Assembly: GCA_036396115.1 (NCBI GenBank)
Contig: DASWLN010000038.1
Span: 1 to 47,429 of the forward strand
Reading direction: 5' to 3'
Source: Candidatus Zixiibacteriota bacterium
GTDB lineage: Bacteria > Zixibacteria > MSB-5A5 > DASWLN01
Length of the DNA stretch: 47,429 nucleotides
Part shown: piece after piece, positions 7,642-47,398 of the stretch
Layout of the letters: each line of letters begins with the position of its first letter
Position numbering within the stretch: position 1 is the stretch's first letter
The notes under the pieces: model-generated
Told to the model about the DNA's origin: nothing
What the model saw: only the letters and a program-made list of their open reading frames with translations
Databases searched by the model: none
Position numbers and translations under genes: made by a program

Positions 7642-7690
7642 CCTCTCCCTTGGTACGAACCATGACGGTTCATACCTTGGGGGGAGAGGG
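7642..7690. repeat. DUF559-end-type hairpin carrying a 23-bp micro-insertion
   Basis: CCTCTCC-CTTG-[GTACGAACCATGACGGTTCATAC]-CTTG-GGGGGAGAGGG. Confidence 0.75.
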
Positions 7691-7837
7691 AACTGGCAAG
7701 AATAGTATTAGTTTTCTACGGGACATTCTGGTATGTCGCCTGCGTTTCTACCCCCCCCCACTCTCTGGGGTTTTTTATTAAAATCATTTGCCTTTTTGGG
7801 TATAAGGGTTATTATTTGTTATGTCAATGCCCTTAAA

Positions 7838-8086
7838 GTGAAGCCTCCCCCTACGGGGGTTTCCCAAATATAAAAGGCCCTCGGCTTCGCCGAGAGGCGA
7901 GCGAAACTTCGCCCGCCTTAAGCGAGGTTCGCCAAAGGCGACCGAAGCATTCTTTTAAGCCCGCCTTCGTCCCGACATAACGTCGGGACTTCGGCGAGGC
8001 TCACCTCGCCATTTCCGCCAAAGGCGAGACTTCGCCTCTTTGGGGCGAGCATCCGCCTACAGGGGCTTTCTGGCGGAGGCGAGTAA
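7838..8086. repeat. Composite palindromic repeat, family A (expanded copy)
   Basis: Same termini as 452-584, with additional nested hairpins. Confidence 0.85.
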
Positions 8087-8117
8087 CTCAAAAGAGAAAA
8101 AGGAATAAGTTGAAGAG

Positions 8118-9272
8118 ATGACTAAGATATTGCTTGATTTACTAATAATGTTTGCCGCAGCGAAGTTGTTGGGCGAGGTCTTTGAGCGGTTTAAATTGCC
8201 GGCGGTGATTGGTGAGATTCTGGCTGGGGTTTGTCTGGGACCCTATGTCTTACATATCATCACTCCGACTGAATTCTATCATGTTTTGGCTGAAATTGGG
8301 GTGATCATCCTTCTTTTCTATGTCGGTCTCCAAACTGGTATAGATGAAATGATCAAGGTAGGAAAGAACTCCATTTCAGTAGCTATACTGGGAGTCGTCC
8401 TGCCTTTTATTCTCGGATACGCTTATATTCTATTTAGTGGGCATAGTGCAGTTGAAGGAATGTTCATTGGTGCGGCTATGGTAGCAACCAGCGTGGGCAT
8501 AACTGCCAGGGTTATGGCCGATTTGAATGTTTTAGACAAAAAAGTGAGCAAGGTCATTCTCGCCGCGGCAGTGGCAGACGATATCATGGGGATGATCGTT
8601 TTGGCTATAGTTACTGGTATGGGAAAAGGAACCCTGTCTTATCTGAATATAATTCTGGTTATTCTGGAGGCAGTAGTATTTGTAATATTTTTGATGGTTA
8701 TTGGGCACAGAGTAATCAGGCGCGTAACCCCTGGAGTGGATTCGCTTAAGACAAGAAACGCCCCCTTTGCTTTTGCTATAATCTTGTGTTTAGCCCTTTC
8801 AGTTTTAGCTGGATATATCAAATTGGCAGCCATTGTGGGCGCTTTTATGGCCGGGATGGTTCTCTCAGAGTTTAATATCCGCTTCCGTTTAACCCTAAAG
8901 ATGGAATCCCTCTATGATTTTTTGGTTCCTTTCTTCTTCGTGGTAATGGGAGCAAATGTGGATTTGACAGTATTCGGCAAATGGAGCATCTTGGGTTTGG
9001 CTTTGATTTTGACTTTTCTGGCTATTATAGGAAAGTTGATTGGATGTAGTCTGGGAGCAATGAATCTGGGTTTCAGACAGGCGACCATTATTGGCGTCGG
9101 AATGGTGCCGCGGGGTGAAGTGGGAATGATAGTTGCCTCAATTGGCCTGAGTTTGGAGACTATTTCCAGAGACCTTTATTCAGTGGTCATATTTATGGTA
9201 GTGATGACAACCGTCTTGACTCCTCCGATACTGAGGATGCTCTTGAGCAGATGGAGAGGATTTTTATCTTAA
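8118..9272 (+). CDS. Cation:proton antiporter (CPA2, NapA/KefB-like membrane domain)
   Basis: About 12 hydrophobic segments. GEILAGVCLGP, AMVATSVGIT, AAVADDI and GMVPRGEVG motifs. Confidence 0.9.
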   Translation: MTKILLDLLIMFAAAKLLGEVFERFKLPAVIGEILAGVCLGPYVLHIITPTEFYHVLAEIGVIILLFYVGLQTGIDEMIKVGKNSISVAILGVVLPFILGYAYILFSGHSAVEGMFIGAAMVATSVGITARVMADLNVLDKKVSKVILAAAVADDIMGMIVLAIVTGMGKGTLSYLNIILVILEAVVFVIFLMVIGHRVIRRVTPGVDSLKTRNAPFAFAIILCLALSVLAGYIKLAAIVGAFMAGMVLSEFNIRFRLTLKMESLYDFLVPFFFVVMGANVDLTVFGKWSILGLALILTFLAIIGKLIGCSLGAMNLGFRQATIIGVGMVPRGEVGMIVASIGLSLETISRDLYSVVIFMVVMTTVLTPPILRMLLSRWRGFLS

Positions 9273-9275
9273 GTT

Positions 9276-10000
9276 GTAGAGGTTAGATTTATCCCGCCTG
9301 TGGCGGGATTTACCCGACCTAATGCCTCTCTTAAACCCCTCCTGACCTCCCCTTATCAGGGGAGGAAAACGTTTCGCATCCACCTGACAATTAGGTGAGG
9401 AACGGTTTTTGTCCCCCTGACAAGTGGGTTACAGGGGGTTAACAGTTTGTAGGTCTTGATGCTTCAGGAATAGGAATTTTCCGCTTTTAGCGGAATCTTG
9501 GTGACCCGAACCGTATCGTAATTTCGTGCAGGAATTCCAATTCCTGCACGAACTAAACGCATCGGTACTTCTCCTCCGCCAAAGGCGAGAGATCTTGAGA
9601 CCAATGCCGATACATCAAGAATCTCCCCTAACCCTCGCCTCGATTCGGCCCGCCTCGGCGAGCCATCGGCGAGACGGGCGAAGCGGGCCTCTTTTGCAAA
9701 GAGGGGAACAAAAATCCCCCTTTGACAAAGGGGGAAAACAGGGGGATTTTATGGTTTGCAGGTTTTTCCGGTTTGCGGATTATTCTGATGTTTCGGGAAT
9801 AGGAATTCCCGAAGGCACCTCCATCGGCATTTCTCCTCCGCCAAAGGCGAGAGATCTTGAGACTAATACCGACGCATCAAACGGGGTAAGCAATGGCTGC
9901 GCCGTTGCTTCTTTGGGAACGGTGCCGTAAACCATGCGGTTCATGGCGGTGCCATGAACCAATGCGGTTTATGGCGGTGCAACCGTTCCCTACCCGCTGC
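9276..10000. repeat. Large intergenic mosaic of nested palindromic repeats
   Basis: Contains the 17-bp TCCCGCCTGTGGCGGGA insert (9292-9308), DUF559-end-type hairpins (9336-9365, 9717-9748), 59-bp direct repeats (9560-9618, 9822-9880) and tandem 22/23-bp micro-inserts (9925-9974). Confidence 0.85.
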
Positions 10001-10087
10001 CCAAGGTGGCTTAAGTGTCAATCTTATTTGCTCAGAAGGCTCGCCGAAATAGAGCTAACACATTTTACAGAGAAGTTACATTTTTGC

Positions 10088-10115
10088 TTGACAAGAAAGA
10101 TTGGCTTATTATATT
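10088..10115 (+). promoter_or_regulatory. Putative sigma70 promoter of the surface-protein operon
   Basis: TTGACA-16 bp-TATATT, about 215 bp upstream of the first start codon. Confidence 0.55.
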
Positions 10116-10330
10116 AAATCTAATTTTGTGGCTTTAAACCAAAATAGGGCTTTTGAAAAGTGGATGTAATTTTGATGTGTCCCTCTTTGAGGAGAGGCTT
10201 TAGTTTTTCGAATCTTTTCTATCATTTCAAGAAAGAAAACACCAATCTGAGAAATCAAAAATAGTTAGTCAGTTTCAGTGAGGGGATTTTGTTCGTAAAT
10301 TCTTAATATAATCGTTACAGGAGGTGCCAA

Positions 10331-12172
10331 GTGAGATTTACAAGTAAGCTGCTTATAATTTCGATTTTGTTTATTCTGTTTGTTATTCCCTGCGGTGTTG
10401 CATATAGTCAGGACCCAACTATATGGTATGTGACTTTTGATCCGGGGATAGGAGATTACACTTTGCCTAAACCTAATTCTATTTCAGCTTTCATCTGGTT
10501 CCCTGAAATAGCAGATATGGACACTACGATTTATTATCCTTTAACTTTTACATTAGACGGTTTACTCATATATAATTGGGAGCCAAATTCAGAGTTTGTC
10601 CAAAGCGGATATAATGTTACTTCAAATAAATATTTCCATAGACCGGAATACGCTAGCTATGATGTTTTGGATTCGATTCGATTAGATATTGAGTTGACTG
10701 ATAGTCTGTCACTTGGGGCCCATGAGTGGAAAGTAGAGCTGTGGCTTGTGGATTGGCCCTTTGAGCCTTGGTTTGCAGGAGCAAAGACCTTTTATGCTGA
10801 TACTGTCTGGTATGCTCCATCTGAAGCAACATCTCTCGCTTTGATTCCTGAAAAGGATCACTACACCTGTAACTCACCTAAATTTGAAGCGGCATTCAGT
10901 TCTCTGCCCGGATACCAATTGATTGATACTACTGTAAAGTTTACTCTATATGCTCCCAACGAAACTTTAGATGTCTATGATGGCTCCAGAGATACAGCAG
11001 TTTTAGATGGGTATTATGCCAGATCGGATGTCGCTCAGTTAAAATTATTCATTGAAGTTGACGATGAGCAAACCCTTTTAGATAGCAGTCAGTATTCCTA
11101 TGAGATTTCAGCCATAGCCGTATCTCTTACGTTACCACGGATAATATACTCTAAGGAGGATACCTTTTCAGTCGGAAATCTTACGACGCCCAAGGAGATC
11201 ATCCCACAGTCTTTTTCCTATGTTGGTCCTAGGCCCGAATTCTATTATACGATTGGAAGGTCCGGCACTGCTCTGGATACCACTAACATCTACTTGGATT
11301 TATTCTACGTGACGTTCGATTATGACACAGTCGGAGATAGCACCATAGAGAAGAGAAACTATCTTAAGACTATCTATCCCAATCAGATGTCGAAATTCGC
11401 AACTGATACAGTAAAAGTAGCAACCAATCTGGAACTGATTGACATGGCTGCTATGGATGTGTTGGTTTGTGGACAAGCAGACCAATATGCGCGTCAAGGC
11501 TATGAGAATTTTGTCCCCTATACTTTAAGAATGGGGTATATGGATACCGTATCTAACAAAAGAGGACCGGCTTATAAAAGATTTATTGTAGACAGGGTTT
11601 CGCCACAGATAACTATGCTGGATTCAACTGATAAGGCGTGGAAATTCCACATACAGGATGGCGGTTCGGGAGTGAACAACAGCTCAGTCGTAGTTACGCA
11701 GAATGGTCAAAAAGTAACAAATGATGCTCTTGTTCAGTATAACCCAACTACGCACATTTTAACTTATTATCCCCTGACCCTGGATGCACTGTTTACACTT
11801 GAAGCCGAAGATAATGTTGGAAATGAGGGCAGTTATTCCACTTATGTGAAGAGTGGTAGATTGATTGCTTATGATATGCATAGTTATCCTAATCCCTTCA
11901 ATCCTACCAAAGGGGAAGAAGCCACAATTGTCCTAAGCTCAAATAGACCAGACAATCAAGCTCTGGAGATAACAGCCAGGGTCTGTGATTTAGCAGGGAA
12001 ACATGTAGCCACCCTGAAGCAGAATGCAGGTAAGCTATTATGGAATGGCAAGACAGATGGAGGAGAATTGGTGGCAAATGGAGTATATCTGTGTTACGTG
12101 AGCATAAGGGATTTGAATGATTTAACTGTCCAGAATTATCTTTTGAAAATAGCCGTGGTTAAGAAAGATTAG
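10331..12172 (+). CDS. Secreted surface protein A with C-terminal FlgD-Ig/T9SS-like sorting domain
   Basis: Signal peptide ending ..AYS-Q. C-terminus SYPNPFNP...CDLAGKHV...LWNGKTDGGELVANGVYLCYV...KIAVVKKD. CAGGAGG RBS. Confidence 0.8.
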   Translation: MRFTSKLLIISILFILFVIPCGVAYSQDPTIWYVTFDPGIGDYTLPKPNSISAFIWFPEIADMDTTIYYPLTFTLDGLLIYNWEPNSEFVQSGYNVTSNKYFHRPEYASYDVLDSIRLDIELTDSLSLGAHEWKVELWLVDWPFEPWFAGAKTFYADTVWYAPSEATSLALIPEKDHYTCNSPKFEAAFSSLPGYQLIDTTVKFTLYAPNETLDVYDGSRDTAVLDGYYARSDVAQLKLFIEVDDEQTLLDSSQYSYEISAIAVSLTLPRIIYSKEDTFSVGNLTTPKEIIPQSFSYVGPRPEFYYTIGRSGTALDTTNIYLDLFYVTFDYDTVGDSTIEKRNYLKTIYPNQMSKFATDTVKVATNLELIDMAAMDVLVCGQADQYARQGYENFVPYTLRMGYMDTVSNKRGPAYKRFIVDRVSPQITMLDSTDKAWKFHIQDGGSGVNNSSVVVTQNGQKVTNDALVQYNPTTHILTYYPLTLDALFTLEAEDNVGNEGSYSTYVKSGRLIAYDMHSYPNPFNPTKGEEATIVLSSNRPDNQALEITARVCDLAGKHVATLKQNAGKLLWNGKTDGGELVANGVYLCYVSIRDLNDLTVQNYLLKIAVVKKD

Positions 12173-12202
12173 TTAGATAGATTCTCACTCAGGAGGTGGT
12201 TA

Positions 12203-14206
12203 ATGAGAAAGTTGAGCAAGTCGGTTATGCTGATAGGTGTGATTTTTCTGATATTCGGCTGGAGTGGCGTCTCTTTTGCCGAATATGAGGTATTTTTTGT
12301 TCCATCCTTCCAAGATAGTTTTACCACGACAAGGCCTGAAATCAGAATCAAGTTTCCCAAGGGAGGGGTGGGCCCAACTAAGGTAGCAATTGATACACTA
12401 AAGCGTTGCGCAAACGAGCCCTACTATGGTTTCATTGATTCTACTGGTAGATTCCCAAGACTAGATTCGATATATTACACAAAAACAAGTCCAGCTGATA
12501 CAATAGTTCGTGCCGGGTTCGGTGACTCTATGTATCAGACAGATGGGTATAATGTCTTGTGCCTTTTCTGGGATACCGCCACGGCACTTCCAGCCAGAGA
12601 TTCAGCAAGTGGCAAACCGGCCTATGCACTAAAGGTTGATTCAGCCGGCACCGTCTTCCGTTATCCGCTAACCCCCTGCAAGTATAATGTTTCCCGTGCT
12701 GGCGAGCTTGTGGTTAAACCGGCTCATAAGTCCAACGACTATACTAACCGTACTCCTATATTCCAAGCGGAGTTCTCTATTTTTAAGGAGGTCAAAGGTG
12801 ATACTACCTGGTATGATGGAGTATTTCTTGACACCAACTTAACGGTTGTCTTAAAAGCTACTGGGATAACAGACACTTTGTACGATTACAAGAGATTTCC
12901 GCAGTTGCGACCAGGTCTGATTGGTAATCTAAGAAAAATTCATCCGGGTAAGATGGTGTTTACTATCAGCTGGCTTGACACCTCTTACTATCTACCTCTG
13001 GACATGACCAAAGCATATATTGACAGCGTAACGGGAGGGGTGTGGGATTATCAAGGTCTTAGTATTATTTGCGGCTCTCCTCCACTTGGTTACAGTCCTA
13101 GGGGAGTAGCTGACACTTTCTGGGTTGATGGAACTCCACCCGAGATGGAATTACAGGAGATGAACTACGTCAGCAAATCCCCATATTTCTTGCTCAAGGC
13201 ATCGGATGCCAAAGCCGGAGTAAATACTGACTCCCTCTTTGTTGACCTGTATAAAGTCGAACTTTATGGTGAAGCCCCTCCGGATGATAGCGTGGAAGAT
13301 AGAAGTTATCTGAAGAGCTTGCAGGTTGAAGGGCTCGATCCATCATTAGGGAGTGTTTTAGTGAATACCGGAGTTGAATTGGAAGATGTGGAGGGTGGTA
13401 TGGCTTTGGATGTCTGGGTGTTCAATGGTAGACCGTTTGATGTGAATGAGTATATGACAAACTTAGATGCCGTCTATCCGGACAGCTTAGGTCCGATGGA
13501 TGGGGCAGGAAATCTGATTACCCCTCTGTATAAACGTTTTTATGTGGACGGGATACCGGCGAACGTAAGATTATCTTCAAACTCCACTCACGAGATTAGG
13601 ATTTTTGAAATCTCCGATACCTCCTCGTGTTATCAAGTTGATACTTTAGGACACGTTGAAATCCTTTGCTCAGGAGTAAACACTGCCAGCGTCAAGTTGT
13701 ACGAGAATTTCCAACTAGTCACTCCTGATTCAACCAAGTACAACTCGTCAAGTGGAGCTTACTCTGTCTACTATAGTCCAACTTCGGAGAATGTATGGAT
13801 AAATCTGGATGTGGCAGACAAAGTGGGTAACATAGCTACTTATCAGAACTATTACGAAGATGACCAGCTGAACTTGGTGGAGCCGCATAATTATCCCAAT
13901 CCTTTTAGCCCGGTTAGTCCCATAGTTGACCACCGCAGGACAGTCATAGACCCGGGGTTAACCAGAACAACTGATATGGAATTGACAATCGATATCTATG
14001 ACTTAGCCGGACACCATGTTGTTTCGGTTACTCCGAATATGGCGGATGGAGGCAGAGGGTATTGGGATGGTAGGACAAAAGATGGCACTCTGGTGGCCAA
14101 TGGAGTCTATCTGTGCTATATTCAGGCAAGGGATACAGCCCAAAATAAGACTTTGACTGAAGTAATTAAAATAGCAGTGGCAAAAAATGATAAGAGAATA
14201 TTTTAA
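12203..14206 (+). CDS. Secreted surface protein B, paralog of A, with C-terminal FlgD-Ig/T9SS-like sorting domain
   Basis: Signal peptide ending ..SFA-E. C-terminus NYPNPFSP...YDLAGHHV...WDGRTKDGTLVANGVYLCYI...KIAVAKND. Colinear similarity to A (YKRFxVD, SGVNxxSV, AxDxVGN). Confidence 0.8.
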   Translation: MRKLSKSVMLIGVIFLIFGWSGVSFAEYEVFFVPSFQDSFTTTRPEIRIKFPKGGVGPTKVAIDTLKRCANEPYYGFIDSTGRFPRLDSIYYTKTSPADTIVRAGFGDSMYQTDGYNVLCLFWDTATALPARDSASGKPAYALKVDSAGTVFRYPLTPCKYNVSRAGELVVKPAHKSNDYTNRTPIFQAEFSIFKEVKGDTTWYDGVFLDTNLTVVLKATGITDTLYDYKRFPQLRPGLIGNLRKIHPGKMVFTISWLDTSYYLPLDMTKAYIDSVTGGVWDYQGLSIICGSPPLGYSPRGVADTFWVDGTPPEMELQEMNYVSKSPYFLLKASDAKAGVNTDSLFVDLYKVELYGEAPPDDSVEDRSYLKSLQVEGLDPSLGSVLVNTGVELEDVEGGMALDVWVFNGRPFDVNEYMTNLDAVYPDSLGPMDGAGNLITPLYKRFYVDGIPANVRLSSNSTHEIRIFEISDTSSCYQVDTLGHVEILCSGVNTASVKLYENFQLVTPDSTKYNSSSGAYSVYYSPTSENVWINLDVADKVGNIATYQNYYEDDQLNLVEPHNYPNPFSPVSPIVDHRRTVIDPGLTRTTDMELTIDIYDLAGHHVVSVTPNMADGGRGYWDGRTKDGTLVANGVYLCYIQARDTAQNKTLTEVIKIAVAKNDKRIF

Positions 14207-14232
14207 CCATTAAACCAAGGGAGAGTGAGAAG

Positions 14233-15150
14233 ATGTCAAACTTCATTAGAAACATTGTTCTCCTTGCTATTGTTTTTAGTATGCTTTGTGTTCCTCCCCT
14301 CTTAGCAGATGATAACCATGCCATGCCAGTGCTGAGAATGGGTGTAGGGGCCAGGGCTTTGGGTATGGGTGGAGCTTATATTGCGGAGGTGAAGGACGCT
14401 TCAGCCACCTATTGGAACCCAGCTGGCTTAACCGAGATGGAACATCTCAACATAACCGGGATGTTCTCATCCGAGATGTCTTATGAGAGGAATCATAATT
14501 TCCTGGCTTACGGTAGAAAATTCGGTTTCGGCGCTTTGGCTATGGGCTGGATATCCCATGAGGTTAGAGGAGTTCATGGATATAGCTATGAGAATCTGCC
14601 TACCAGCACATTCAGGGAGGTAGATAATGTATTTATGTTCTCCTACGCCAGAAAGATCGGAAAATTCTCCTCCGGAGCAAATTTTAAGATAGTTGACCAA
14701 AGGATGGGAGATTACTTAAGCGAAACCGGCATCGGATTCGACCTGGGGGTGCGTTATTCTTATAACGACGATCTTGTTTTCGGTGCAGTGGTAAAAGATA
14801 TTGCCACTAAGGTTGGCGGCTGGACCGGAAAATATGAAGTCTGGAAGGATAGAGTTCCAGCTAACTTCGGAGTAGGAGCAGTAGTCTATCCTTACGCTGG
14901 TTTCACTTTCCCGGTGGATGTCTACAAAGTTGAGGGCAGAGAGGATATGGCACTCCATTTCGGCGGAGAATATACCTATAAACTTGAAGAAAAATACTCC
15001 TTCAGCCTTCGCGCTGGCTCAAATGACGGCCAAATAGCTTTTGGATTTGGTCTGAAGTTTGTGAAATTCACCATAGATTACGCTTTTATGAACGAACAGC
15101 AGGATTTCTTAAAGGAGAATCACAAATTCTCCTTCTCGGCTGATTTTTAG
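14233..15150 (+). CDS. PorV/PorQ family outer-membrane beta-barrel
   Basis: GVGARALGMGGAY..YWNPAGL N-terminal signature, alternating beta-strands, C-terminal Phe (FSFSADF). Confidence 0.85.
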   Translation: MSNFIRNIVLLAIVFSMLCVPPLLADDNHAMPVLRMGVGARALGMGGAYIAEVKDASATYWNPAGLTEMEHLNITGMFSSEMSYERNHNFLAYGRKFGFGALAMGWISHEVRGVHGYSYENLPTSTFREVDNVFMFSYARKIGKFSSGANFKIVDQRMGDYLSETGIGFDLGVRYSYNDDLVFGAVVKDIATKVGGWTGKYEVWKDRVPANFGVGAVVYPYAGFTFPVDVYKVEGREDMALHFGGEYTYKLEEKYSFSLRAGSNDGQIAFGFGLKFVKFTIDYAFMNEQQDFLKENHKFSFSADF

Positions 15151-15171
15151 AAGTCGAAATGAGCCAAAACT

Positions 15172-15203
15172 AAAAACCCTCCCGCTTCAGCAGGAGGGTT
15201 TTT
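15172..15203. terminator. Intrinsic (bidirectional-type) terminator
   Basis: AAAAACCCTCC-loop-GGAGGGTTTTT, 22 bp after the PorV-like stop. Confidence 0.85.
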
Positions 15204-15208
15204 GTATT

Positions 15209-15530
15209 GTAGGGGTCGCATTCCCTGGCCATGGAGGTCGAGCGGGGTGTGAACCGTTCTGGTTCACACCGGGGAAGAACGGGTAGGCTGACTTGGTCCC
15301 GCATTTTGCGGGATCGGGTGAGGAAACCCGGCAGGTACAATGGTCCGCACAGGGATAAATTCCCTGTGCTACGAATATAACATGTCGTAGGTGTGGGAAT
15401 TTCGTTGGTTCGGGAATTGGATTTCCCGAACCACTTGTGAGCGGGAATTCCACAGGTAGACAAATGTATTAATCTTCTTTGTGTCGGGTAGCTCGCCAAA
15501 TGGCTCACAACCCGACCTACAGTGTCTAAA
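15209..15530. repeat. Cluster of GTAG-type palindromic repeats
   Basis: 15222-15296 matches the reverse complement of about 47262-47307, with a 23-bp insert at 15247-15269. Also TTCGGGAATTGGATTTCCCGAA and GGTCGGG..CCCGACCTAC-type hairpins. Confidence 0.75.
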
Positions 15531-15625
15531 GAAAATAGAGAGAAGATACTGGGCAAAGGTTTGAAGGGAGCTTACCGAATCATAAATCAAAGCGCTGTAA
15601 AAAACCCGTAATAAAGGAAGAATTT

Positions 15626-16108: not shown

Positions 16109-16109
16109 A

Positions 16110-17888: not shown

Positions 17889-17909
17889 TATGAAAGAATA
17901 TCAGAGTAT

Positions 17910-18108
17910 CCCCGTAGGGGGGATGAATGACATTTCTATAAGTTCCCTCTCCCTTGGGGGAGAGGGTTAGAGCCTGCCCTAAAGCGAAGCGAAGGGGTGA
18001 GGGGGATAACGAAGATGATTCTTACCCCTCTCTCCGCCTTTGGCGGGATTTTCAACTTAGTCCTCCCCCTCAAGGGGGAGGAGATGTTTTGGATGCCCCC
18101 GTAGGGGG
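17910..18108. repeat. Non-coding copy of both DUF559-element ends, each with a nested insert, bracketed by CCCCGTAGGGG palindromes
   Basis: CCCTCTCCCTTGGGGGAGAGGGTTAG[..]GGTGAGGGGG at 17945-18005 and CCCCTCTC[..]CTTAGTCCTCCCCCTCAAGGGGGAGGAG at 18025-18083. Confidence 0.75.
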
Positions 18109-18117
18109 AAAGCTCAC

Positions 18118-32722: not shown

Positions 32723-32792
32723 GTAGCCGACAGGTCGGGCAAGGTGCCCTGTACCAGCACGGTTCAGGGCTTGCCCGACCACTCTGCCGTAC
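32723..32792. repeat. GTAG-type REP containing a CCCTGTACC-N5-GGTTCAGGG core
   Basis: GGTCGGGCAAG...CTTGCCCGACC stem enclosing the 23-bp core at 32747-32769. Confidence 0.7.
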
Positions 32793-36728: not shown

Positions 36729-36913
36729 TTAGTCCTCCTTTACATACTCAATCGGGTAAGTAATGGCTGCGCCATTACTTCTGCTGTCTTTTATCTTTTC
36801 GGGAACGCTGCAACTGTTCCCTACCCGCTTCTTTATACTAAGCTCGAGGTTATACTAAAAACAAAATAGTAAATCGCAAAACTGTTGTCAAACGAAAAAC
36901 TTCTCAAATCTAT

Positions 36914-36942: not shown

Positions 36943-36950
36943 TTAAAAAT

Positions 36951-39113: not shown

Positions 39114-39122
39114 GTTTTTAAT

Positions 39123-39382: not shown

Positions 39383-39393
39383 ATAATGCGTGA

Positions 39394-40002
39394 TTATTTT
39401 CTAAGTTTCTTAGCTATTTCCGCAACTCTCTTGCCCAATGCCTTAGCTAACTCCAGATCATCTTCAGTTGGCGATTTATCAGCTTTTGGCCCAGAGACGG
39501 ATGACGCTCCATAAGGTGAGCCCCCGCCAGTTGTACTGAAAAGCCTTTGTTCTGAATAAGGTATTCCAACGATTATCATCCCGTGGTGCAATAAGGTCAG
39601 CATCATGGTGATCAAAGTTGTCTCTTGTCCTCCGTGAGGCGTAGAAGTGCTGCAGAATAATCCAGCCGGCTTTCCGATAAGCTGCCCTTTTGCCCACAAG
39701 GGTCCGGTAGTATCAAGATATTGCCTTAACTGGGCACACATATTTCCATAACGGGTGGGACTACCAAAAAGGACTGCATCCGCTTCAATCAAATCCTGAA
39801 GCGTAGCAATGGGGATATCCTTTTGCATCTCCTTGGCTTTTATCACCTGAGGAATCTTGGAGTAAATCTCCTTGGGTATAAGCTCACCAACCTGCCTTAG
39901 ATTTACCTCTGCCCCCTCAACTGATTTGGCGCCTTCTGCCACTGCTTGGGCTAATTTGAAAGTGTTTCCATACATACTATAATAGACCACCAGGATTTTC
40001 AT
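39394..40002 (-). CDS. wrbA: NAD(P)H:quinone oxidoreductase, type IV
   Basis: YYSMYGNT, FGSPTRYGNM, STSTPHGGQETT, GGSPYGAS. Confidence 0.95.
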   Translation of the reverse strand: MKILVVYYSMYGNTFKLAQAVAEGAKSVEGAEVNLRQVGELIPKEIYSKIPQVIKAKEMQKDIPIATLQDLIEADAVLFGSPTRYGNMCAQLRQYLDTTGPLWAKGQLIGKPAGLFCSTSTPHGGQETTLITMMLTLLHHGMIIVGIPYSEQRLFSTTGGGSPYGASSVSGPKADKSPTEDDLELAKALGKRVAEIAKKLRK

Positions 40003-40017
40003 ACTTGTTCACCTCGC

Positions 40018-40323
40018 TTAGAGTATCCTGTTGTATTTTTTGACTATGGGCGGGTTTTCTCGGGCGTGGGCGATTCCACAAAATTTCTCCCAGAGCGTGT
40101 TTATCTGTGGGTCCGCATCCACCTGCTGTCTGACCTTTTGGTAATGCTCTTCGCTTTCGAAGTAAATCACCTCCATGCAAAATCCGGAAGAGCCCTTCTC
40201 CTCGTAGACCTCATAACCAGAACATCCATACCTGGCGTATAAGGATTTTGCCTGTTTCTGCACTTCCAGAAATTCGTCTTTCCTTCCAAAAGGAACCCTG
40301 TAAGTATAGGTTATGATGAACAT
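40018..40323 (-). CDS. Small dimeric alpha/beta-barrel protein (DUF1428/NIPSNAP-like)
   Basis: Y.VP....EF.........Y...G...YEVY pattern with ferredoxin-like topology. Family assignment is tentative. Confidence 0.6.
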   Translation of the reverse strand: MFIITYTYRVPFGRKDEFLEVQKQAKSLYARYGCSGYEVYEEKGSSGFCMEVIYFESEEHYQKVRQQVDADPQINTLWEKFCGIAHARENPPIVKKYNRIL

Positions 40324-40332
40324 AAAACCCCC

Positions 40333-40713
40333 TTAAAATGAAAATCTTATTCCTACTTGATTTATCGGTTTGTTCACGAAAGTTCCGTAAATTCTTTGAT
40401 AGTTTAGTTTGAAATTCTTAAACACGGGTTTCACCAAGCCCATTTCCATATAATAATCATCCCCGGAATCATACCAATTATAATCTAAACAAATCTCCAA
40501 GTCAAACCAAAAGTATAGCTTGAAGCTGTTGACTGTAACTATCTGCAAAGTCTGACCAGCATCATCCAGTTCATCCAGAAAGTTCTTATACAAAGAGAGA
40601 TCATCGGTGATTTTGTTGAAACCCAAAGGCTGAGCTAATATAAAAACAGGAAAAAAGGAAAATAGAAAAAGGAAAATGAAAAACTTGGATTTCAAAGAAC
40701 CCTCCTTTGTCAT
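40333..40713 (-). CDS. Hypothetical secreted protein with a C-terminal beta-signal
   Basis: GGAGG RBS, signal peptide (..VFILA-Q), aromatic alternating strands, ends QVGIRFSF. Confidence 0.65.
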   Translation of the reverse strand: MTKEGSLKSKFFIFLFLFSFFPVFILAQPLGFNKITDDLSLYKNFLDELDDAGQTLQIVTVNSFKLYFWFDLEICLDYNWYDSGDDYYMEMGLVKPVFKNFKLNYQRIYGTFVNKPINQVGIRFSF

Positions 40714-40723
40714 AAATCATATT

Positions 40724-40911
40724 TGACCCACGTTGCCTGCCCGGCCAGGGAGGGCAACGTGGGTATACTATTTTTGCGTAGGGGTGGAGTTTATCTCCAC
40801 CCTGCGCCTTCGGGCGAAGACGAGCTTCGCCCCTACGCGTCGAAGATTTTTTGGAGTGCATTGACCATGTCAATGCTGCATCGTCACGGACGATGCACTC
40901 CATAGATAATA
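40724..40911. repeat. Palindromic repeat cluster
   Basis: ACCCACGTTGCC..GGCAACGTGGGT; GTAGGGGTGGAG..CTCCACCC / GGGCGAAG..CTTCGCCCCTAC; GGAGTGCA..TGCACTCC with nested hairpins. Confidence 0.75.
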
Positions 40912-40915
40912 CCTT

Positions 40916-42451
40916 TCACATCCCCAAAGTTCTATCCAAACTTCTATACTGAATCGCTTCGCTGATATGCTGGGGTAAGATTTCTTTTTGGTTTTCCAAA
41001 TCGGCAATGGTTCGGGCAACTTTTATGATTCTATCATAAGCTCGTGCAGATAAGCCCAAACGGGTGATAGCCATTCTCAAAAGTTCTTTGGAGCTTTCGT
41101 CAATCGGGCAATATTTTCTTATATCCTTAGAATCCATATGCGCATTGCAGAAGATATGCTTTTCTTTCTTAAATCTCTCTAATTGAGTTTTCCTTGCCTT
41201 ATTAACTCTCTCTCGAATAAGGGTTGAATTCTCGCCAGTCGGCTCACCGGAAAGCTCCTTAAATTTGACTGCGGGAACTTCGATATGAATATCGATCCTG
41301 TCCAGAAGTGGCCCGGAGATTCGGCTGACATATCTTTGAATTTGCAAAGGAGAGCAGGAGCAATCGTGGATCAAATCTCCATGATAGCCGCAAGGGCAGG
41401 GATTCATTGCGCCAACTAACATAAACTTGGCTGGGTAAGTTAAGGACATCAAAGCTCTAGAAATAGTGACTCTCCCATCTTCCATCGGCTGTCTTAATAC
41501 CTCTAAAACATCCTTGTGAAATTCCGGCATCTCATCTAAAAACAAGACTCCGTGATGAGCTAAACTCACCTCACCTGGTCGGGGAATCTTGCCTCCACCA
41601 ACCAGTCCGGCATCGCTTATCGTATGATGTGGAGAGCGGAAGGGACGTGTAGCTATCAAGGCGGCATTTGAGGGTAAAAATCCAGCCACTGAATGAATCT
41701 TGGTTGTCTCTAAAGCTTCGTCCAGAGTCAGATTGGGCAAGATGGTGGGTAATCTTCTCGCAAGCATAGTCTTTCCAGAGCCAGGGGGGCCAAGTAAGAT
41801 TATATTGTGTCCTCCTGCAGCTGCAACCTCCAATGCCCTTTTGGTGTGCTCCTGACCTTTGACGTCTGAAAAATCTAACTTGTAATCTAGCGCCTCCTCA
41901 AAAACTTGATTTACATCAATGGTGAATGGTTTGGTAGAAAGTTCATTTTCTAGAAAAGAGACGGCCTCCTTCAGATTGCTTACCGGATAAATCTCCACGT
42001 CCTTTGCCATGGCCGCTTCCTTAGCATTCTCCTTGGGCAAAATCATTCCCTTGATGTTGTTCTTACGGGCTGAAAGTGCCATAGGCAAAGCACCGTGAAT
42101 GGGCCTTACTGCACCGTCTAACGAGAGTTCGCCTAAGATTAGATAGTCCTCAAAGTTTTCTTTTGAGACTTGCCCGGTGGCTGAGAGTATGCCAACAGCT
42201 ATTGGGAGGTCGAAAGAGGAACCCTCTTTTTTTATATCCGCCGGCGCTAAGTTTACGGTGATTTTCTTATTGGGAAAAGTAAATCCGGAGTTCTTAATGG
42301 CAGATTGAACTCTTTCCCGACTCTCCTTTACTGCATTATCAGGTAATCCAACCGTAGTGAAAGAGGGAAGCTGAGGTGAGATGTCCGCCTCAACTTGGAC
42401 AACATAGGCATCTATGCCTAAGACTGCACTGGAAAGTATTTTGGAGAGCAT
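40916..42451 (-). CDS. comM: YifB/ComM family Mg-chelatase-like AAA+ ATPase
   Basis: [67 protein letters not shown]. Confidence 0.93.
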
Positions 42452-42633
42452 ATTTTATGAATTAACCGAATCCTTTGCAGGCGACATTCGCCAATGTCGC
42501 GTAGATTTTTTAGAAGTGTCAGGAGTAGCTCCTGACACAATGCGAAACGAAGTTCAAGGTCCCTGCTACTAAAATCTGGTTTTCAGAATTGATGTGCCGT
42601 GCTTTCTTTCCTTCTTGGTTAGGCCGTTTTTTT

Positions 42634-43079
42634 CCTCTCCCCATGGGGGAGAGGATTAAGGTGAGGGGGTAAGTTTCCCTTTTTCTATATTCTCTTGAAT
42701 TACTCGGCAAACTCCCTCAATATTCTTCAGTATCTCGCTATCACTGAATCTCAATATCCGTACCCCCAATTGCGACAACTCCTTTGTTCTTAATTCGTCT
42801 TCACTTCTGTGGTCATCTTCGTAATGCTGTCCGCCATCCGACTCAATGCCGAGCTTACATTTGGGAGAGTAGAAATCCAATATATATCTGCCGATGGAAA
42901 ATTGCCTCCTGAACTTTGCGCTAGCCAGCTGACGATTTCGCAATATTGACCAAAGTTTCCTTTCGGTATCTGTTTGGTTTTTTCGCAGGTTTCGTGATCT
43001 TTCAACATTCTTTCGTTTCATCTCACTCTCTGAGATTTGTCTTCCCCCTCACCCTATCCCTCTCCCCAAAGGGGAGAGG
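42634..43079. mobile_element. Putative DUF559 endonuclease mini-element bounded by 35-bp hairpin-bearing terminal inverted repeats
   Basis: Left end CCTCTCCCC-ATG-GGGGAGAGG-ATTAAG-GTGAGGGG (42634-42668). Right end CCCCTCAC-CCTATC-CCTCTCCCC-AAA-GGGGAGAGG (43045-43079), its imperfect reverse complement. Confidence 0.65.
42656..43021 (-). CDS. DUF559 / Vsr-like PD-(D/E)XK endonuclease
   Basis: LRKNQTDTERKLW..LR......FRRQ..IG.YILDFY....LGIESDGGQH.....D..R...L...G.RILRF. The stop codon lies inside the left terminal repeat. Confidence 0.9.
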   Translation of the reverse strand: MKRKNVERSRNLRKNQTDTERKLWSILRNRQLASAKFRRQFSIGRYILDFYSPKCKLGIESDGGQHYEDDHRSEDELRTKELSQLGVRILRFSDSEILKNIEGVCRVIQENIEKGKLTPSP

Positions 43080-43120
43080 GAACTTTGTTTCTCGAGGTCA
43101 TGGGACCCCCAGATTACCTA

Positions 43121-43609
43121 TTATCTGTTCTTCTCTTTCCACTTCACCACATGCACACAATATTTTCCGCCGCTGGGGATGGATTCGGAGATAACATATT
43201 CCAAATCTTTGTTAAGCTCTTCCACCAAAGTCCTTTCCATAGTGGTGTGAGCTTGGCAGATTTTGGGGTCATCAAAAGGATAGGGGCACTGGTAAAGCTT
43301 AATTACCACTTTATCATCTGAGAACTCCGAGACCTCTCCTTCGCAGTCTATCATTGAGAAAATTCTCAGAAGATAAAGCCCTACCTCCTGGGGAGTTGGA
43401 TTTCCCATTTTCTTTTTGGCGAATTCAGCCACTTGCTTGCCATAAGTGTGGCTGACTTCCTGAATTAAATCCAGTCCAGCTTCGCCGAATTTTTTGTAAA
43501 GACCTTTGTAGATGGTATTTATTCTGCTAAGAAGCGCTTTGGTGGAAGTGCGGTATTTTTTATCAAGTGGTATTTCGGGTAATTCTAGTCCCTTTGGAGT
43601 TTTGAGCAT
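43121..43609 (-). CDS. L-2-aminothiazoline-4-carboxylate hydrolase-like / V4R-fold protein
   Basis: Helical N-terminus, then ..KLYQCPY...IC..........SESIPSGGKYC.H, with three conserved-looking Cys. Confidence 0.6.
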   Translation of the reverse strand: MLKTPKGLELPEIPLDKKYRTSTKALLSRINTIYKGLYKKFGEAGLDLIQEVSHTYGKQVAEFAKKKMGNPTPQEVGLYLLRIFSMIDCEGEVSEFSDDKVVIKLYQCPYPFDDPKICQAHTTMERTLVEELNKDLEYVISESIPSGGKYCVHVVKWKEKNR

Positions 43610-43637
43610 AAACCCTTTCCGTGGCTGGAAAAGTCCC

Positions 43638-43892
43638 CTAAACTACCTTGTAGACAGTATCATTATGACGGACTGCACCATTGATCTTGATTCCGATGGA
43701 AATTCCAGCTTTGGCTTCTTGCACCTGCTCATGTTCAATTTGCATAGATTCCACCTTCTGGGTCAGGTCGGTGGTGTGCCCGTGGATGTGGATAGTGTCA
43801 CCCACTTTTAGAATGCCGTGAGTGATATCAATTGCGGCAACATCTATCTTTTTGAAATACCCCGCAATCTTACCTACGATTTCCTCTGGCAT
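43638..43892 (-). CDS. Translation elongation factor-like small beta-barrel protein
   Basis: VGKIAGYF.KI.VAAI......LKVGDTIHI.GHTTD..Q.VESMQIEH..V..A..G..IGIK. Confidence 0.8.
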   Translation of the reverse strand: MPEEIVGKIAGYFKKIDVAAIDITHGILKVGDTIHIHGHTTDLTQKVESMQIEHEQVQEAKAGISIGIKINGAVRHNDTVYKVV

Positions 43893-43950
43893 AATCCCTC
43901 CTGGTTTATGCTTTAGGTTTGCGGCTATCTTTGATTGTTAAAATAAAATT

Positions 43951-44898
43951 TTATTTTAAATCTCCGGAAATGGAGATACGATGCACTCCGCCGAGGTCAG
44001 CATAAGATGAATAAGCGTAATCGAATCTATAGACTTTCCAGTTCACGCCCAAGCCAAAGGAGAATCCAGCCAAATTGTCTTTGTCCGAACCGGTCTTGTA
44101 GTTTTTACCAAAAGAGCTCCATCCCATTCTCAAGAAGGCCGGCTTAAAAGAGGAAAGCTCTGCGCCAAGACTGAAATAGATATCATTGTCAAATGGTTTA
44201 GCCCCATCCACTGCTACTAAGAGTGGCAATCCATGAACATAGTGCGACACTCCGACTTTAATTTCAGCTGGCAGGGATTCTTTATGCTCTTTAGAAAGGC
44301 CATTAAGTTGATACCCCAGATTCTGAACCATTACTCCCACTTGAATCTTCTTTTTTTCTGACTTATGAAAAGCTCCAATATCCAGAGCTAAAGCATCAGA
44401 AGTGTAATTATCTATCTTCTCCAAGATGAATTTGGCATTTACACCCAAACTGATTAGAGGATGAACCTTGCGGGCATAGGTGGCTATGAGGGCGAAGTCA
44501 GCCGCTCCGAAGGTGCCTAAGTTTTCGCCATATTGGTCTGTTTTATCGAAGGAGCCATAATTGAAATAGTTGATTGAAATTCCCAGTCGAGTTTTTTCAT
44601 CGTAGGGATGGATGTAACCAATAAAGCCGGATTGAATGTCAGTTAAATAGTTATTGTAGCTGGTGGTGAAACTTCGGTTAGGGAGTTGGGTTAAGCCGGC
44701 TGGGTTAAAATAGATGGCTGATTGGTCATCTGCCAATCCCACAAAAGCACCACCCATTGCTACTGCCCTTGCCCCCACTCCGATTTTCAAGAAAGAATAG
44801 GCAGTTGTGCCAGCATTGGAATTGATTCCGGCGTAGGCATAAGATATCAGAAAGACACCTGTTAACAGAGTCAAAATTGCTATTTTGGTTTTTCTCAT
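43951..44898 (-). CDS. PorV/PorQ family outer-membrane beta-barrel (second paralog)
   Basis: FLKIGVGARAVAMGGAF....DDQSAIYFNPAGL, FDYAY, GGVHRISI. Confidence 0.85.
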   Translation of the reverse strand: MRKTKIAILTLLTGVFLISYAYAGINSNAGTTAYSFLKIGVGARAVAMGGAFVGLADDQSAIYFNPAGLTQLPNRSFTTSYNNYLTDIQSGFIGYIHPYDEKTRLGISINYFNYGSFDKTDQYGENLGTFGAADFALIATYARKVHPLISLGVNAKFILEKIDNYTSDALALDIGAFHKSEKKKIQVGVMVQNLGYQLNGLSKEHKESLPAEIKVGVSHYVHGLPLLVAVDGAKPFDNDIYFSLGAELSSFKPAFLRMGWSSFGKNYKTGSDKDNLAGFSFGLGVNWKVYRFDYAYSSYADLGGVHRISISGDLK

Positions 44899-44959
44899 AT
44901 TTTCTCCTTATTTCATATTGACAAAGCTAATAAAATATGCTCAAAAGTCAACCGTTTTA

Positions 44960-45442
44960 TTACCAGGATTTGACTGTGCGGTTTATGATATCCTCAACCA
45001 GTTTCTCAACCGCCCTTTCTTTTCCCTGGCTTTCCTCCTCTGTCACCGAATAGACCCCCCAACCCTTCATATTCTCTTCCCATAAGTTCTTCTTTTTGTT
45101 CTTATCTTCCAGCCAGACCTTGACGTAGATCTCCGAGATATACTCCTTTATGTTTTCCTGCTCATCATAAGTATAGGCCCTACGTTGATATTTGGTGATA
45201 GTTCCGTACAGAATGGCATCTGCCTCTTTCTCGTTTAGAACTTTTAAGACGTGATTCTGCACAAAACCATCCACCACTTTTTCAGTTATACTTTCGCTCA
45301 AGCCATATTCCGCGGTCTGATTCTCAAAAGGTGGTATGGCAATGGAGTTCACTCCGGGAAGGGAGGTGCCGTGAAAGGAGTAAGGCCCACAGCTGATAGC
45401 TAGTAGTAAAACCGGAAATAAGACATATTTAATTGTTTTCAT
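44960..45442 (-). CDS. LptE family lipoprotein (Bacteroidota-type)
   Basis: Lipobox LAISC-G, then YSF.G......SIAIPPFENQT and DAILYGTITKY. Start may be 45442 or 45454. Confidence 0.75.
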   Translation of the reverse strand: MKTIKYVLFPVLLLAISCGPYSFHGTSLPGVNSIAIPPFENQTAEYGLSESITEKVVDGFVQNHVLKVLNEKEADAILYGTITKYQRRAYTYDEQENIKEYISEIYVKVWLEDKNKKKNLWEENMKGWGVYSVTEEESQGKERAVEKLVEDIINRTVKSW

Positions 45443-45513
45443 TTTCCTCTCCACATTTCAAAATTTACTTCTCCTGTATGCTCTATTACGAGGTTCCTCC
45501 TTTTGTACGCTAT

Positions 45514-45848
45514 TGTCATTCCCGCCCCGCATTTCTGCGGGGTAAACTCCAGCGGGAATCCAGAAACAGATGAAACCGAAACTCCAGCAATAACAAAAAC
45601 TGGATTCCGCCCTAACTACTGGGTTTTCAACATCAAGTGCGGAATGACGTACTGTGTGTTTCCGTAGGGATGGGAATTTATGGTTCGACTTTGCTCACCA
45701 TCCTGAGCCTGTCGAAGGATCCCATCCCGCGTAGGCGACATTCGCGAATGTCGCCTACAATAGATTTTATGTAGGGGTTGGATTTATCTTGCCTGTGGCG
45801 GGATTTATCCGACCTAACCCCCAGCGGGCTTGATGAATCAAGCCCCTA
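45514..45848. repeat. Cluster of CGTC- and GTAG-type palindromic repeats
   Basis: GTCATTCCCGCC..GCGGGAATCCAG; GTTCGACTTTGCTCACCATCCTGAGCCTGTCGAAGG; perfect palindrome at 45731-45758 identical to 39300-39327; 17-bp insert at 45787-45803. Confidence 0.85.
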
Positions 45849-47105
45849 CAAATTCAAAACTTTACCATTCTTTATGATTTTTTCGACCAGATTTATCCCA
45901 TAATGATATGGAATCTCTTTATAGTTCTTTACCTCCCATATAACCAAATCCGCTTTTTTGCCAGGCTCTATGCTTCCAATTTGATTTTCCATATTCAAAG
46001 CATAAGCCGGATTTATGGTTGAGGCAACAATTGCCTCAGCTGGGGTCAGTTTCATCATAAGGCAGGATAAGCTCATCATCATAGGCATTGATTCACTCAT
46101 TGAGCTTCCGGGGTTGAAGTCAGTTGAGATAGCAATGGGCAAGTTATTTTCTATCATCTTTCTGGCAGGGGCGTATTTTTTCAAGCCCAAGCCAAAGGTT
46201 GCTCCGGGAAGAAGGACTCCAATCACACCTCTTTTTTTCAAAAGCTTTATATCGGTTAGAGTAACATTTTCCAGATGGTCAGCACAGATAGCACCAATTT
46301 GTGATGCCAATTTCGCTCCTCCAAAATGGGAGAGTTGCTCTGCGTGAAGCTTTGGCACAAGACCATATTTTTTTGCAGCCAGAAGTATCTTTTTTGAATC
46401 TTTAGTATCGAATACCCCTTTTTCGCAGAAGATATCGCAGAATTTTGCCAATCTTCTTTTTGCTACCAGATGTATCATTTCCTCTATGAGAAGCCTAATA
46501 TAACCTTCTTTGTTATCCTTATATTCCTCTGGAATCTCGTGCGCCCCCAGAAAAGTCGGGACTAAATCGATTGGATGAATTCTATTCAGTTGCCTTATTA
46601 CTTCCAATATCTTTATTTCATCTTTCAAAGAAAGCCCGTATCCGCTTTTTGCTTCGATAGTAGTTGTTCCGTAAGATAAGAATCTATCCAATCTCGGAAT
46701 GGCAAGTTTTATCAATTCTTCTTTGCTTAATTTTCTCACTTTTCTTACAGACGATTTTATCCCTCCACCAGCTCGGGCGATTTCCTCGTAAGTTTTTCCT
46801 TTTATCCTAAGCTCGAATTCCTCCTCTCTGGTATTAGCAAAGATTGGATGGGTGTGGCAATCGACCAAACCCGGAGTTACAACTCTATTTTTAGCATCTA
46901 CGATTTTTGTATTTTTCCCGACTTTAATTTTGGATAACACTTTATCTGTTTTCCCGAGTGAGATGATTCTATTTCCCTTGATGGTAACTGTTCCGTTTTC
47001 AATAATGCCCAATTCCTGCATATTTTTTCCGGCGCGGGGACCTCTTTTGGAAGAACGGAGAGTTAGAAGCTGTCCGACGTTTTTTATGATTAAATCAGCT
47101 ATCAT
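45846..47105 (-). CDS. hutI: Imidazolonepropionase
   Basis: PGLVDCHTHPIFA, GGGIKSSV, YGTTTIEAKSGYGL, FLGAH, LHAEQL, ADHLE, STDFNPGSS. Confidence 0.96.
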   Translation of the reverse strand: MIADLIIKNVGQLLTLRSSKRGPRAGKNMQELGIIENGTVTIKGNRIISLGKTDKVLSKIKVGKNTKIVDAKNRVVTPGLVDCHTHPIFANTREEEFELRIKGKTYEEIARAGGGIKSSVRKVRKLSKEELIKLAIPRLDRFLSYGTTTIEAKSGYGLSLKDEIKILEVIRQLNRIHPIDLVPTFLGAHEIPEEYKDNKEGYIRLLIEEMIHLVAKRRLAKFCDIFCEKGVFDTKDSKKILLAAKKYGLVPKLHAEQLSHFGGAKLASQIGAICADHLENVTLTDIKLLKKRGVIGVLLPGATFGLGLKKYAPARKMIENNLPIAISTDFNPGSSMSESMPMMMSLSCLMMKLTPAEAIVASTINPAYALNMENQIGSIEPGKKADLVIWEVKNYKEIPYHYGINLVEKIIKNGKVLNL

Positions 47106-47120
47106 ATTTCAGATGTTTTC

Positions 47121-47398
47121 AGATTGCTTCGTCGTCCTGTCCCGCCTGTGGCGGGAGACTCCTCGCAATGACAGCACAAAATGAATGTCATTGCGAGTCC
47201 CCGCAGGGGGCGAAGCAATCTATTAAATTATTGGGTTTTTCAATCCAATAGTAATTCTCTGTCAGGTCAGCCTGCCCGTTTCTCCCCGCTCAACCCAATG
47301 GCCAGGGGGGACCTGACGAGCACAGAACGTCATTCCCGCCCCCGTAGGGGATAGACTCCAGCGGTATGAGCCAGAACGGTTCATACCAGCGGGAATCT
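47121..47398. repeat. Cluster of CGTC-type palindromic repeats with nested micro-inserts
   Basis: AGATTGCTTCG..CTCGCAATGAC / GTCATTGCGAG..CGAAGCAATCT pair; 17-bp insert at 47140-47156; 23-bp insert at 47364-47386. Confidence 0.85.

Follow-up and report, generated by a model that had tools for sequence, protein, structure and literature searches.

To our knowledge, the smallest accepted transposable units, miniature inverted-repeat transposable elements (MITEs) and the paired repetitive extragenic palindromic (REP) sequences called REPINs, measure tens to hundreds of bases; the shortest MITE we know of is ~79 bp, and most are at least 100 bp. The only report of mobile DNA of ~20-27 nt known to us is that of the cyanobacterial small dispersed repeats (SDRs) in 2008, which are unexplained and come from one family. 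These SDRs, described by Elhai et al. from the Nostocaceae, are the closest known system to the one we report here. SDR4, SDR5 and SDR6 are dispersed, apparently mobile units of ~21-27 nt with precise points of insertion (for SDR5, between nucleotides 3 and 4 of HIP1), and they are not known to have an enzyme or a function (PMC4390886, PMC5861425, PMC13756078). SDRs have been reported from the Nostocaceae alone (PMC5861425). We analyzed a contig of 47,429 nucleotides from a Candidatus Zixiibacteriota bacterium (contig C38, referred to below as the window) and found a 23-bp palindromic element inserted into other short repeats and bordered by short direct duplications. The copies probably represent a non-autonomous mobile DNA element of extremely small size, made up of a hairpin alone.

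The 23-bp element resembles the SDRs in size class, in its dispersal, and in its precise insertion into other short repeats. It differs from them in several ways. It probably belongs to a different sequence family, as indicated indirectly by a chance-level count in a Nostocaceae MAG. It is found in many phyla, whereas SDRs have been reported only from Nostocaceae. Its clear duplication of 4-5 bp, at targets with a pyrimidine first and a purine last (Y...R), may be a further difference.

The window is part of a metagenome-assembled genome (MAG), G000, which has 194 contigs (1.48 Mb, 65% complete, 42.8% G+C). Coordinates without a prefix are those of the window, and C-numbers are contigs of G000 unless another genome is named. 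The core TGAACC-N5-GGTTCA, allowing at most one mismatch, had five matches in the window where 0.12 were expected, and none of 100 shuffled sequences reached five. The preliminary description had reported four filled sites with duplications, a related core without one, and an unoccupied homologue of each host repeat. On re-reading, the four filled sites were exactly as described, with CTTG, CGGG and CAGCG doubled and CGGTG present three times, and the related core at 32747-32769 indeed had no duplication. The sites in the window are:

7649-7679 (+), filled: CTTG (7649-7652), element 7653-7675 (GTACGAACCATGACGGTTCATAC; GTA-CGAACC-ATGAC-GGTTCA-TAC, with T>C in one arm), CTTG (7676-7679); the copy occupies the loop of a hairpin in the host repeat, CCTCTCCC/GGGGAGAGG.
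9920-9979 (+), double insertion: CGGTG (9920-9924), 22-bp copy 9925-9946 (CCG-TAAACC-ATGC-GGTTCA-TGG), CGGTG (9947-9951), 23-bp copy 9952-9974 (CCA-TGAACC-AATGC-GGTTTA-TGG), CGGTG (9975-9979); a paralogous host repeat at C90:7143 has a single 22-bp copy only.
15243-15273 (-), filled: CGGG (15243-15246), element 15247-15269 (GTGTGAACCGTTCTGGTTCACAC; GTG-TGAACC-GTTCT-GGTTCA-CAC, loop AGAAC on the minus strand), CGGG (15270-15273); filled paralogues at C140:11121 and C74:2082.
47359-47391 (+), filled: CAGCG (47359-47363), element 47364-47386 (GTATGAGCCAGAACGGTTCATAC; GTA-TGAGCC-AGAAC-GGTTCA-TAC), CAGCG (47387-47391); inside the hairpin repeat TGTCATTCCCGC...GCGGGAATC, with copies of both loop orientations at the same site in C52:2861, C162:10437 and C151:997.
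32747-32769 (+), related core without duplication: CCC-TGTACC-AGCAC-GGTTCA-GGG, which forms the tip of the longer palindrome GGTCGGGCAAG...CTTGCCCGACC; near-identical paralogue at C22:984.
17945-17966, empty homologue of the site at 7653: CCCTCTCCC-TTG-GGGGAGAGGG.
36798-36822 (+), empty homologue of the double site at 9920-9979: TTCGGGAACGCTGCAACTGTTCCCT, with target CGCTG (36806-36810), one base off CGGTG.
45544-45561 (+), empty homologue of the site at 47364: AAACTCCAGCGGGAATCC.
47272-47301 (-), empty homologue of the site at 15247 and of those at C140:11121 and C74:2082: CCATTGGGTTGAGCGGGGAGAAACGGGCAG, with 1-2 mismatches to the prediction.

All four empty homologues therefore exist, although the one for the double insertion had been placed at 36811-36833 and lies at 36798-36822, with CGCTG instead of CGGTG. 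Each copy with a duplication was also said to occupy a separate host repeat family. This is true within the window and false genome-wide, where the same family was hit repeatedly at the same point (see below). The hairpin CCTCTCCC...GGGGAGAGG (window 7640-7690 and 17945-17966) forms both ends (42632-42654 and 43059-43081) of a 446-bp DUF559 nuclease unit. The host of the copy at 7653 is thus a solo end from another repeat family, into which the small element inserted. One more resemblance, at 4485-4507 (CTG-TGAACC-AATCC-GGTGGA-GAC), lies within an FG-GAP gene; its stem is broken despite CTGG on both sides, and it most likely arose by chance and is no member of the family. Type IX secretion sorting domains are present among the proteins of the window.

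We found that duplications at the edges of the element are far above chance genome-wide. In G000, 38 motif matches had exact repeats of 4-5 bp directly bordering the 23-mer, and the frequency was 0.75% in a control in which left and right flanks were taken from different copies and then paired. Pooled over all sequences fetched, 149 distinct copies were fully palindromic, and 71 of these had an exact edge repeat of at least 4 bp, compared to 8 of 136 look-alikes (matches with non-complementary outer bases; Fisher p = 3e-16). The repeat lengths in the 149 palindromic copies were 0 (64 copies), 1-3 bp (14 copies, only one of them 3 bp), 4 bp (53), 5 bp (16), and longer (2). This sharp distribution, either 0 or 4-5 bp, looks like that of a target-site duplication and agrees with the fixed-length duplications of MITEs. 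We also scanned G000 blindly for hairpins (perfect stems of at least 7, loops of 3-7). Flanking repeats characterized only those with TGAACC (11/14) and TGCACC (6/12) cores; the counts at other abundant hairpins were 6/39, 4/43 and 1/49.

The duplicated targets followed a simple rule. All 69 of the 4-5 bp duplications started with a pyrimidine and ended with a purine (Y-N2-3-R): 58 were C...G, 4 were T...A, 4 were C...A and 3 were T...G. Positions neighbouring the duplication were not conserved. More than 30 different sequences had been duplicated, unlike IS200/IS605-type elements, which insert 3' of one fixed tetra- or pentanucleotide and duplicate nothing. We rejected the possibility that targeting is specific to the tips of hairpins, as flank complementarity was no higher than at random positions. 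Several insertions, including that at 7653, nonetheless lie in hairpin loops.

Empty sites were found throughout the genome. For 36 copies in G000 we built the predicted empty site (13 nt, a single copy of the target, and 13 nt). Approximately 11 of the 36 had a paralogous empty site elsewhere in the genome, several of them with no mismatches over 30-31 nt. The filled sites with zero-mismatch empty counterparts are:

C8:5807, filled, with C52:6709 empty.
C22:745, filled, with C194:1628 empty.
C111:4290, filled, with C97:16596 empty.
C24:2006, filled, with C21:6280, C38:17972 and C124:10841 empty.

G000 is crowded with other short repeats, including hairpins with an xxxxxAATGACA tag (80 copies of CTCGCAATGAC), a GCGAAGCGAAGGGGTGAGG unit, and runs of GAGTTTT-type heptamers. 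All of these other short repeat families act as landing sites for the 23-bp element.

We found that single targets had been hit more than once. The host family ctccagcg/ggaatc was filled four times at one point, by copies with loops AGAAC, AGAAC, and the reverse complements of ATTGC and AAAAC, the last two in the opposite orientation. At C7:219-272, CCCCG occurs three times around a TGCACC copy and a TGAACC copy, and in the Planctomycete genome G042 (C8:7256/7283) two subfamilies lie 27 bp apart in opposite orientations. Repeated hits, both orientations and tandem subfamilies exclude simple co-amplification with the host repeat, and sites in which target and element alternate (target-element-target-element-target) indicate that a used target remains a target. 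Among paralogous host repeats we found no target-target footprints lacking the element. There is accordingly no sign of cut-and-paste excision, and both copy-type spread and precise loss are possible. On contig C2 of G042 (L262, 18730-18840), four or more units of CCATGAACCCCTGTGGTGCATGG plus TAAG are repeated every 27 bp up to the contig end. The element can thus form tandem arrays, and assemblies are probably broken by it.

These results bear on the notion that the hairpin has no movement of its own and is a variant part of host repeats, spread with them or by gene conversion, with empty sites made by slippage deletion. Several filled sites are indeed paralogous copies of one host repeat, and palindromes between direct repeats are textbook hot spots for deletion. 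However, there are 53 distinct contexts among 59 copies, the hosts are unrelated to each other and include single-copy genes (dnaG and lipoprotein linkers), and one site contains both orientations. Furthermore, the different duplicated sequence at each site requires an insertion step. We find this explanation barely credible.

Copies were also present in one genome and absent from related ones. In G042, dnaG contains two copies (L261, G042 C2:68000-87999, at 7728-7750 and 7803-7825) in the linker before the C-terminal domain. The orthologues in three related genomes (G043, G044 and G045) have neither copy, and their flanks are 90-95% identical. Other sites were filled at the same position in two or three of the four genomes, indicating old, inherited insertions. 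The filled and empty sites had been read in the preliminary description as integration with a short duplication. The bimodal repeat lengths, the zero-mismatch empty sites, the independent hits, and the dnaG orthologues without copies all uphold this reading.

The element has the form NNN-TG[A/C/T]ACC-loop-GGT[T/G/A]CA-N'N'N' and is 22-24 bp long, with two 9-nt arms around an asymmetric loop. The genome-wide family is broader than the TGAACC/GGTTCA motif and includes a large TGCACC subfamily; there are ~50-60 copies in G000. The outer triplets are GTA/TAC, GTG/CAC, CCC/GGG, CCA/TGG, ACA/TGT, AGG/CCT and others. The loop is 5 nt (rarely 4 or 6) and, once oriented, read A-(G/T)-(A/T)-A-(C/T) in 43 of 43 copies, most commonly AGAAC. 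The element is non-coding, with a TGA in one reading frame. A degenerate copy (GGTATAAACCATATGTTTCATATT) at C11:7647-7672 lies 25 bp upstream of an intact one at 7697, which suggests that old and young copies occur together.

We found that the two arms of the element change together. Across 37 distinct copies, 96.4% of stem positions were paired, as expected of the terminal inverted repeats (TIRs) of MITEs. Covariation was present at four of the nine stem pairs (the three outer pairs and stem position 3; 68 cells) and was matched by none of 500 shuffles. Changes in a single arm amounted to scattered decay of individual copies. As single-stranded DNA, the 23-mers had folding energies of -7.2 to -10.6 kcal/mol. 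The element appears to be read or copied in a folded form, because positions that are free in sequence stay complementary between the arms. If a protein read the duplex, positions that it did not recognize would drift independently in both arms.

The structure also bears on a second alternative raised in the preliminary description, that the copies are footprints or remnants of a larger element. A palindromic remnant between intact duplications is the textbook outcome of nearly precise excision of Tn10. However, no larger element was found in the G000 assembly, the stem covaries, and the sequence and length of the loop are conserved across phyla, when independent deletions would end at differing bases. 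Dozens of copies would demand dozens of excisions, and two different subfamilies are found in tandem at one target. We therefore abandoned this alternative as very improbable.

Most copies are outside of genes. In G000, 48 of 52 copies were outside open reading frames (ORFs) of at least 120 amino acids, though such ORFs make up 80% of the genome. Genic copies were in frame (23 + 4 = 27 bp) and in tolerant stretches. The element reads LNQNGS after the lipobox, in the linkers of Planctomycete lipoproteins. In Elusimicrobia UBA5214, it reads VNQNGSH in one ORF and MHQNGAY in a paralogue, and a third paralogue lacks it. In G032 (L142, C7:22000-26500), two adjacent paralogous ORFs (468 and 483 amino acids) beside a radical-SAM gene have the element at an equivalent position (2228-2250 and 3713-3735), and the stems of these two copies are two compensated changes apart (GTG-TGAACC and GTA-TGCACC). 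In being in-frame palindromes in tolerant surface or linker regions of proteins (here lipoprotein LNQNGS, the dnaG linker and VNQNGSH), the genic copies are like Rickettsia palindromic elements. Those elements, in contrast, are ~100-150 bp and found only in Rickettsia, and the insert here is 23 bp plus a 4-bp duplication, or 27 bp.

We found the element in distantly related bacteria. The sequence GTATGAACC-N5-GGTTCATAC, with 18 fixed bases, matched 37 stretches in 596 Gb, compared to ~9 expected by chance. These were clustered in a groundwater Nitrospirae MAG (JACQXB01), in Elusimicrobia UBA5214, and in one MAG of the window's order; single copies were found in Margulisbacteria, Aminicenantia, Zixibacteria and others. 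About half of the stretches had 4-5 bp duplications and the same loops. The 17-mer core with an AGAAC loop was present in at least 115 stretches. Among the matches listed, duplications bordered 19 of 39 palindromic copies (mostly CCC...GGG) versus 1 of 44 non-palindromic ones. The exact core was counted 44 times in 2.0 Mb, 27 times in 1.4 Mb, 20 times in 1.5 Mb, and 12 times in 2.2 Mb in four related Planctomycetes. The counts of 3 in 6.9 Mb for a Nostocaceae MAG and 2 in 5.9 Mb for an Elainellaceae MAG are what chance would give. G000 is the sole member of its family, and the relatives compared belong only to the same order; of 30 such relatives, one was clearly positive. In all, the family spans at least eight phylum-level labels, including Zixibacteria, Nitrospirota, Elusimicrobiota, Planctomycetota, Margulisbacteria and Aminicenantia. 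An adapter or assembly artefact is not credible, because the assemblies stem from different projects and sequencing methods.

Two of the genomes with copies differ in the surroundings of those copies. In a Magasanikbacteria genome (G048; L176, L214 and L251), CCC-TGAACC-AGAAC-GGTTCA-GGG is flanked by inverted A/T runs, has no direct repeats, and looks like a terminator; these copies may be domesticated or convergent. A genome (CAZOJT01; G011, the same as G033) labelled 'Ignavibacteria' in its record, and belonging by genome placement to the window's order, shares the element. Its five copies, with loop AAGAT, lie in one larger repeat and have no duplications.

Several observations weigh against our reading of the copies as a hairpin-only mobile element, and many of them concern the enzyme. 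None that moves the element was identified among the gene families and neighbours examined. No gene family recurred beside copies across genomes, and none of the five families tested for co-occurrence (PF01797, PF04480, PF00665, PF01609 and PF07282) tracked the element. TnpB was absent from all eight genomes tested, DUF559 from G032, rve from G031 and G042-G045, and DDE_Tnp_1 from G032 and G042-G045. Y1_Tnp was found nearly everywhere, element-free relatives included. All of the genomes compared are MAGs. No duplication was found at 64 of the 149 palindromic copies, which may be decayed copies or unrelated terminator-like hairpins. The symmetric Y...R target suits a dimer acting on duplex DNA and is awkward for a purely single-stranded intermediate. 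Finally, empty sites alone cannot set the ends of the element; an identical empty sequence would be expected of an element of 25 bp that duplicates 2-3 bp. We consider the latter less parsimonious, as it requires a fixed G:C tip plus a Y/R target context. A 21-bp element with a 6-7 bp duplication was likewise rejected, since it suits only sites whose target is flanked by C...G.

Other searches were also negative. In G000 we found no longer elements that are bounded by these 9-bp ends and flanked by a duplication (30-5000 bp spacing), no multicopy transposase ORFs (the multicopy ORFs were translated repeats only), and no insertion-sequence ends at contig ends, where the shared sequence consisted of composite repeats. 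Viral and phage contigs contained only terminator-like chance hairpins without duplications. There were no Rfam families in the window, and literature searches for the element sequence or for the smallest mobile element returned nothing relevant. MAGs can lose insertion sequences, so that a missing parent element weighs little, and the moving enzyme is probably carried on unbinned mobile DNA.

The main rival derives the element, as an extreme MITE, from a conventional DDE insertion sequence: an internal deletion would have left two 9-bp TIRs, and a transposase encoded elsewhere would move the duplex by cut-and-paste or copy-paste. The inverted-repeat ends, the fixed 4-5 bp duplication and the two-fold symmetric Y-N2-3-R target are classic signs of a dimeric DDE enzyme, and the core, TG...CA, is like the textbook ends of IS3, Mu and retroviral-type elements. 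More generally, the element is like MITEs such as Correia/NEMIS and ERIC in being non-coding and having inverted-repeat ends, a duplication, filled and empty sites, and many copies; moreover, the routine loss of insertion sequences from MAGs makes an absent parent weak evidence. Unlike MITEs (~50-500 bp with internal sequence), it is 22-24 bp and has nothing internal beyond a loop of 4-6 nt; the preliminary description had rightly remarked that 23 bp is far below the typical size. Neither a longer element with these ends nor a multicopy transposase ORF, and hence no cognate insertion sequence, was found in G000, and rve and DDE_Tnp_1 are missing from several genomes with many copies. The outer 3 bp, which would be the cut tips, vary freely and yet stay complementary, which is unexpected for recognition of duplex ends. 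A 23-bp duplex would also seem too stiff to place both 3' ends 4-5 bp apart. On balance we regard an extreme MITE as unlikely.

We also considered that the hairpin might be REP-like, with a Y1 HUH enzyme, either a REP-associated tyrosine transposase (RAYT) or an IS200-type TnpA, spreading it via single-stranded DNA at the replication fork. The covarying stem and conserved loop are like those of REPs and IS200/IS605 ends, and all high-copy genomes apart from the weak case G043 have Y1_Tnp genes. Like the element, REPs and REPINs are multicopy hairpin palindromes, 20-35 bp long, that lie between genes and have covarying stems. In G042, one Y1 gene has a copy of the element 240 bp downstream; that gene, however, most resembles the Y1 genes found in element-free Zixibacteria, and Y1 genes are found equally in element-free relatives. 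REPs differ from the element in having an unpaired GTAG tag, making no duplication, and flanking their own RAYT. The element has no conserved flank bases beyond Y...R, and so no REP-type unpaired tetranucleotide tag. G000 also contains true REPs and RAYT-like genes, and these are not linked to the element: at C139:4300-4950, different, GTAG-type REPs (GGGCGGAC...GTCCGCCCCTAYGCG) lie on both sides of a RAYT-like Y1 gene (~4438-4850, minus strand), and one of these REPs has a CCC-TGCACC-ATATA-GTGCA-GGG copy inserted in its tail. No hairpins of the family were found at IS200-type loci. Textbook HUH transposition (IS608, ISDra2) makes no duplication and uses a fixed tetra- or pentanucleotide target, whereas the duplications here are variable. 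A Y1 HUH route thus seems decidedly improbable.

If the copies are a hairpin-only mobile element, as we think probable, its movement might proceed as follows. A trans-acting enzyme would cut the target 5' of a pyrimidine on each strand, with a 5' stagger of 4-5 nt, and fill-in repair synthesis would duplicate the target. The element would be recognized when folded, as a single-stranded hairpin or a cruciform. What the enzyme reads would be the loop and the invariant TG-ACC/GGT-CA core, and it would measure out to the cut sites; at the three outer pairs and stem position 3 it would require pairing alone, with sequence free. The intermediate would be the folded 23-mer, whose 5' and 3' ends would adjoin at the base of the stem and could be joined to cuts 4-5 bp apart. 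We infer a folded intermediate because a straight 23-bp duplex cannot bring its ends to cuts so close together; the persistence length of DNA is ~150 bp.

Our results might also indicate something broader, which we put forward tentatively, as a possibility that we would not yet favour. The element could represent a new class: a hairpin with no room for the sites of a conventional transposase, whose folded single strand is read by an unrecognized enzyme and spliced into staggered Y-N2-3-R cuts of 4-5 nt. Such elements might pass between bacteria of distant phyla in groundwater and sediment and might reshape both the hairpins between genes and the linkers of proteins, and Elhai's SDRs might have been the first glimpse of the class.

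The element provides a second, sharply defined case of mobile DNA of this size, with clean duplications, a target rule, repeat hits, orthologous presence and absence, and a cross-phylum range. What enzyme moves 23 bases becomes a directly testable question. In practice, such elements probably fragment MAG assemblies; they also create or lengthen hairpins beside genes and place 9 extra codons in the genes of proteins such as DnaG and lipoproteins.

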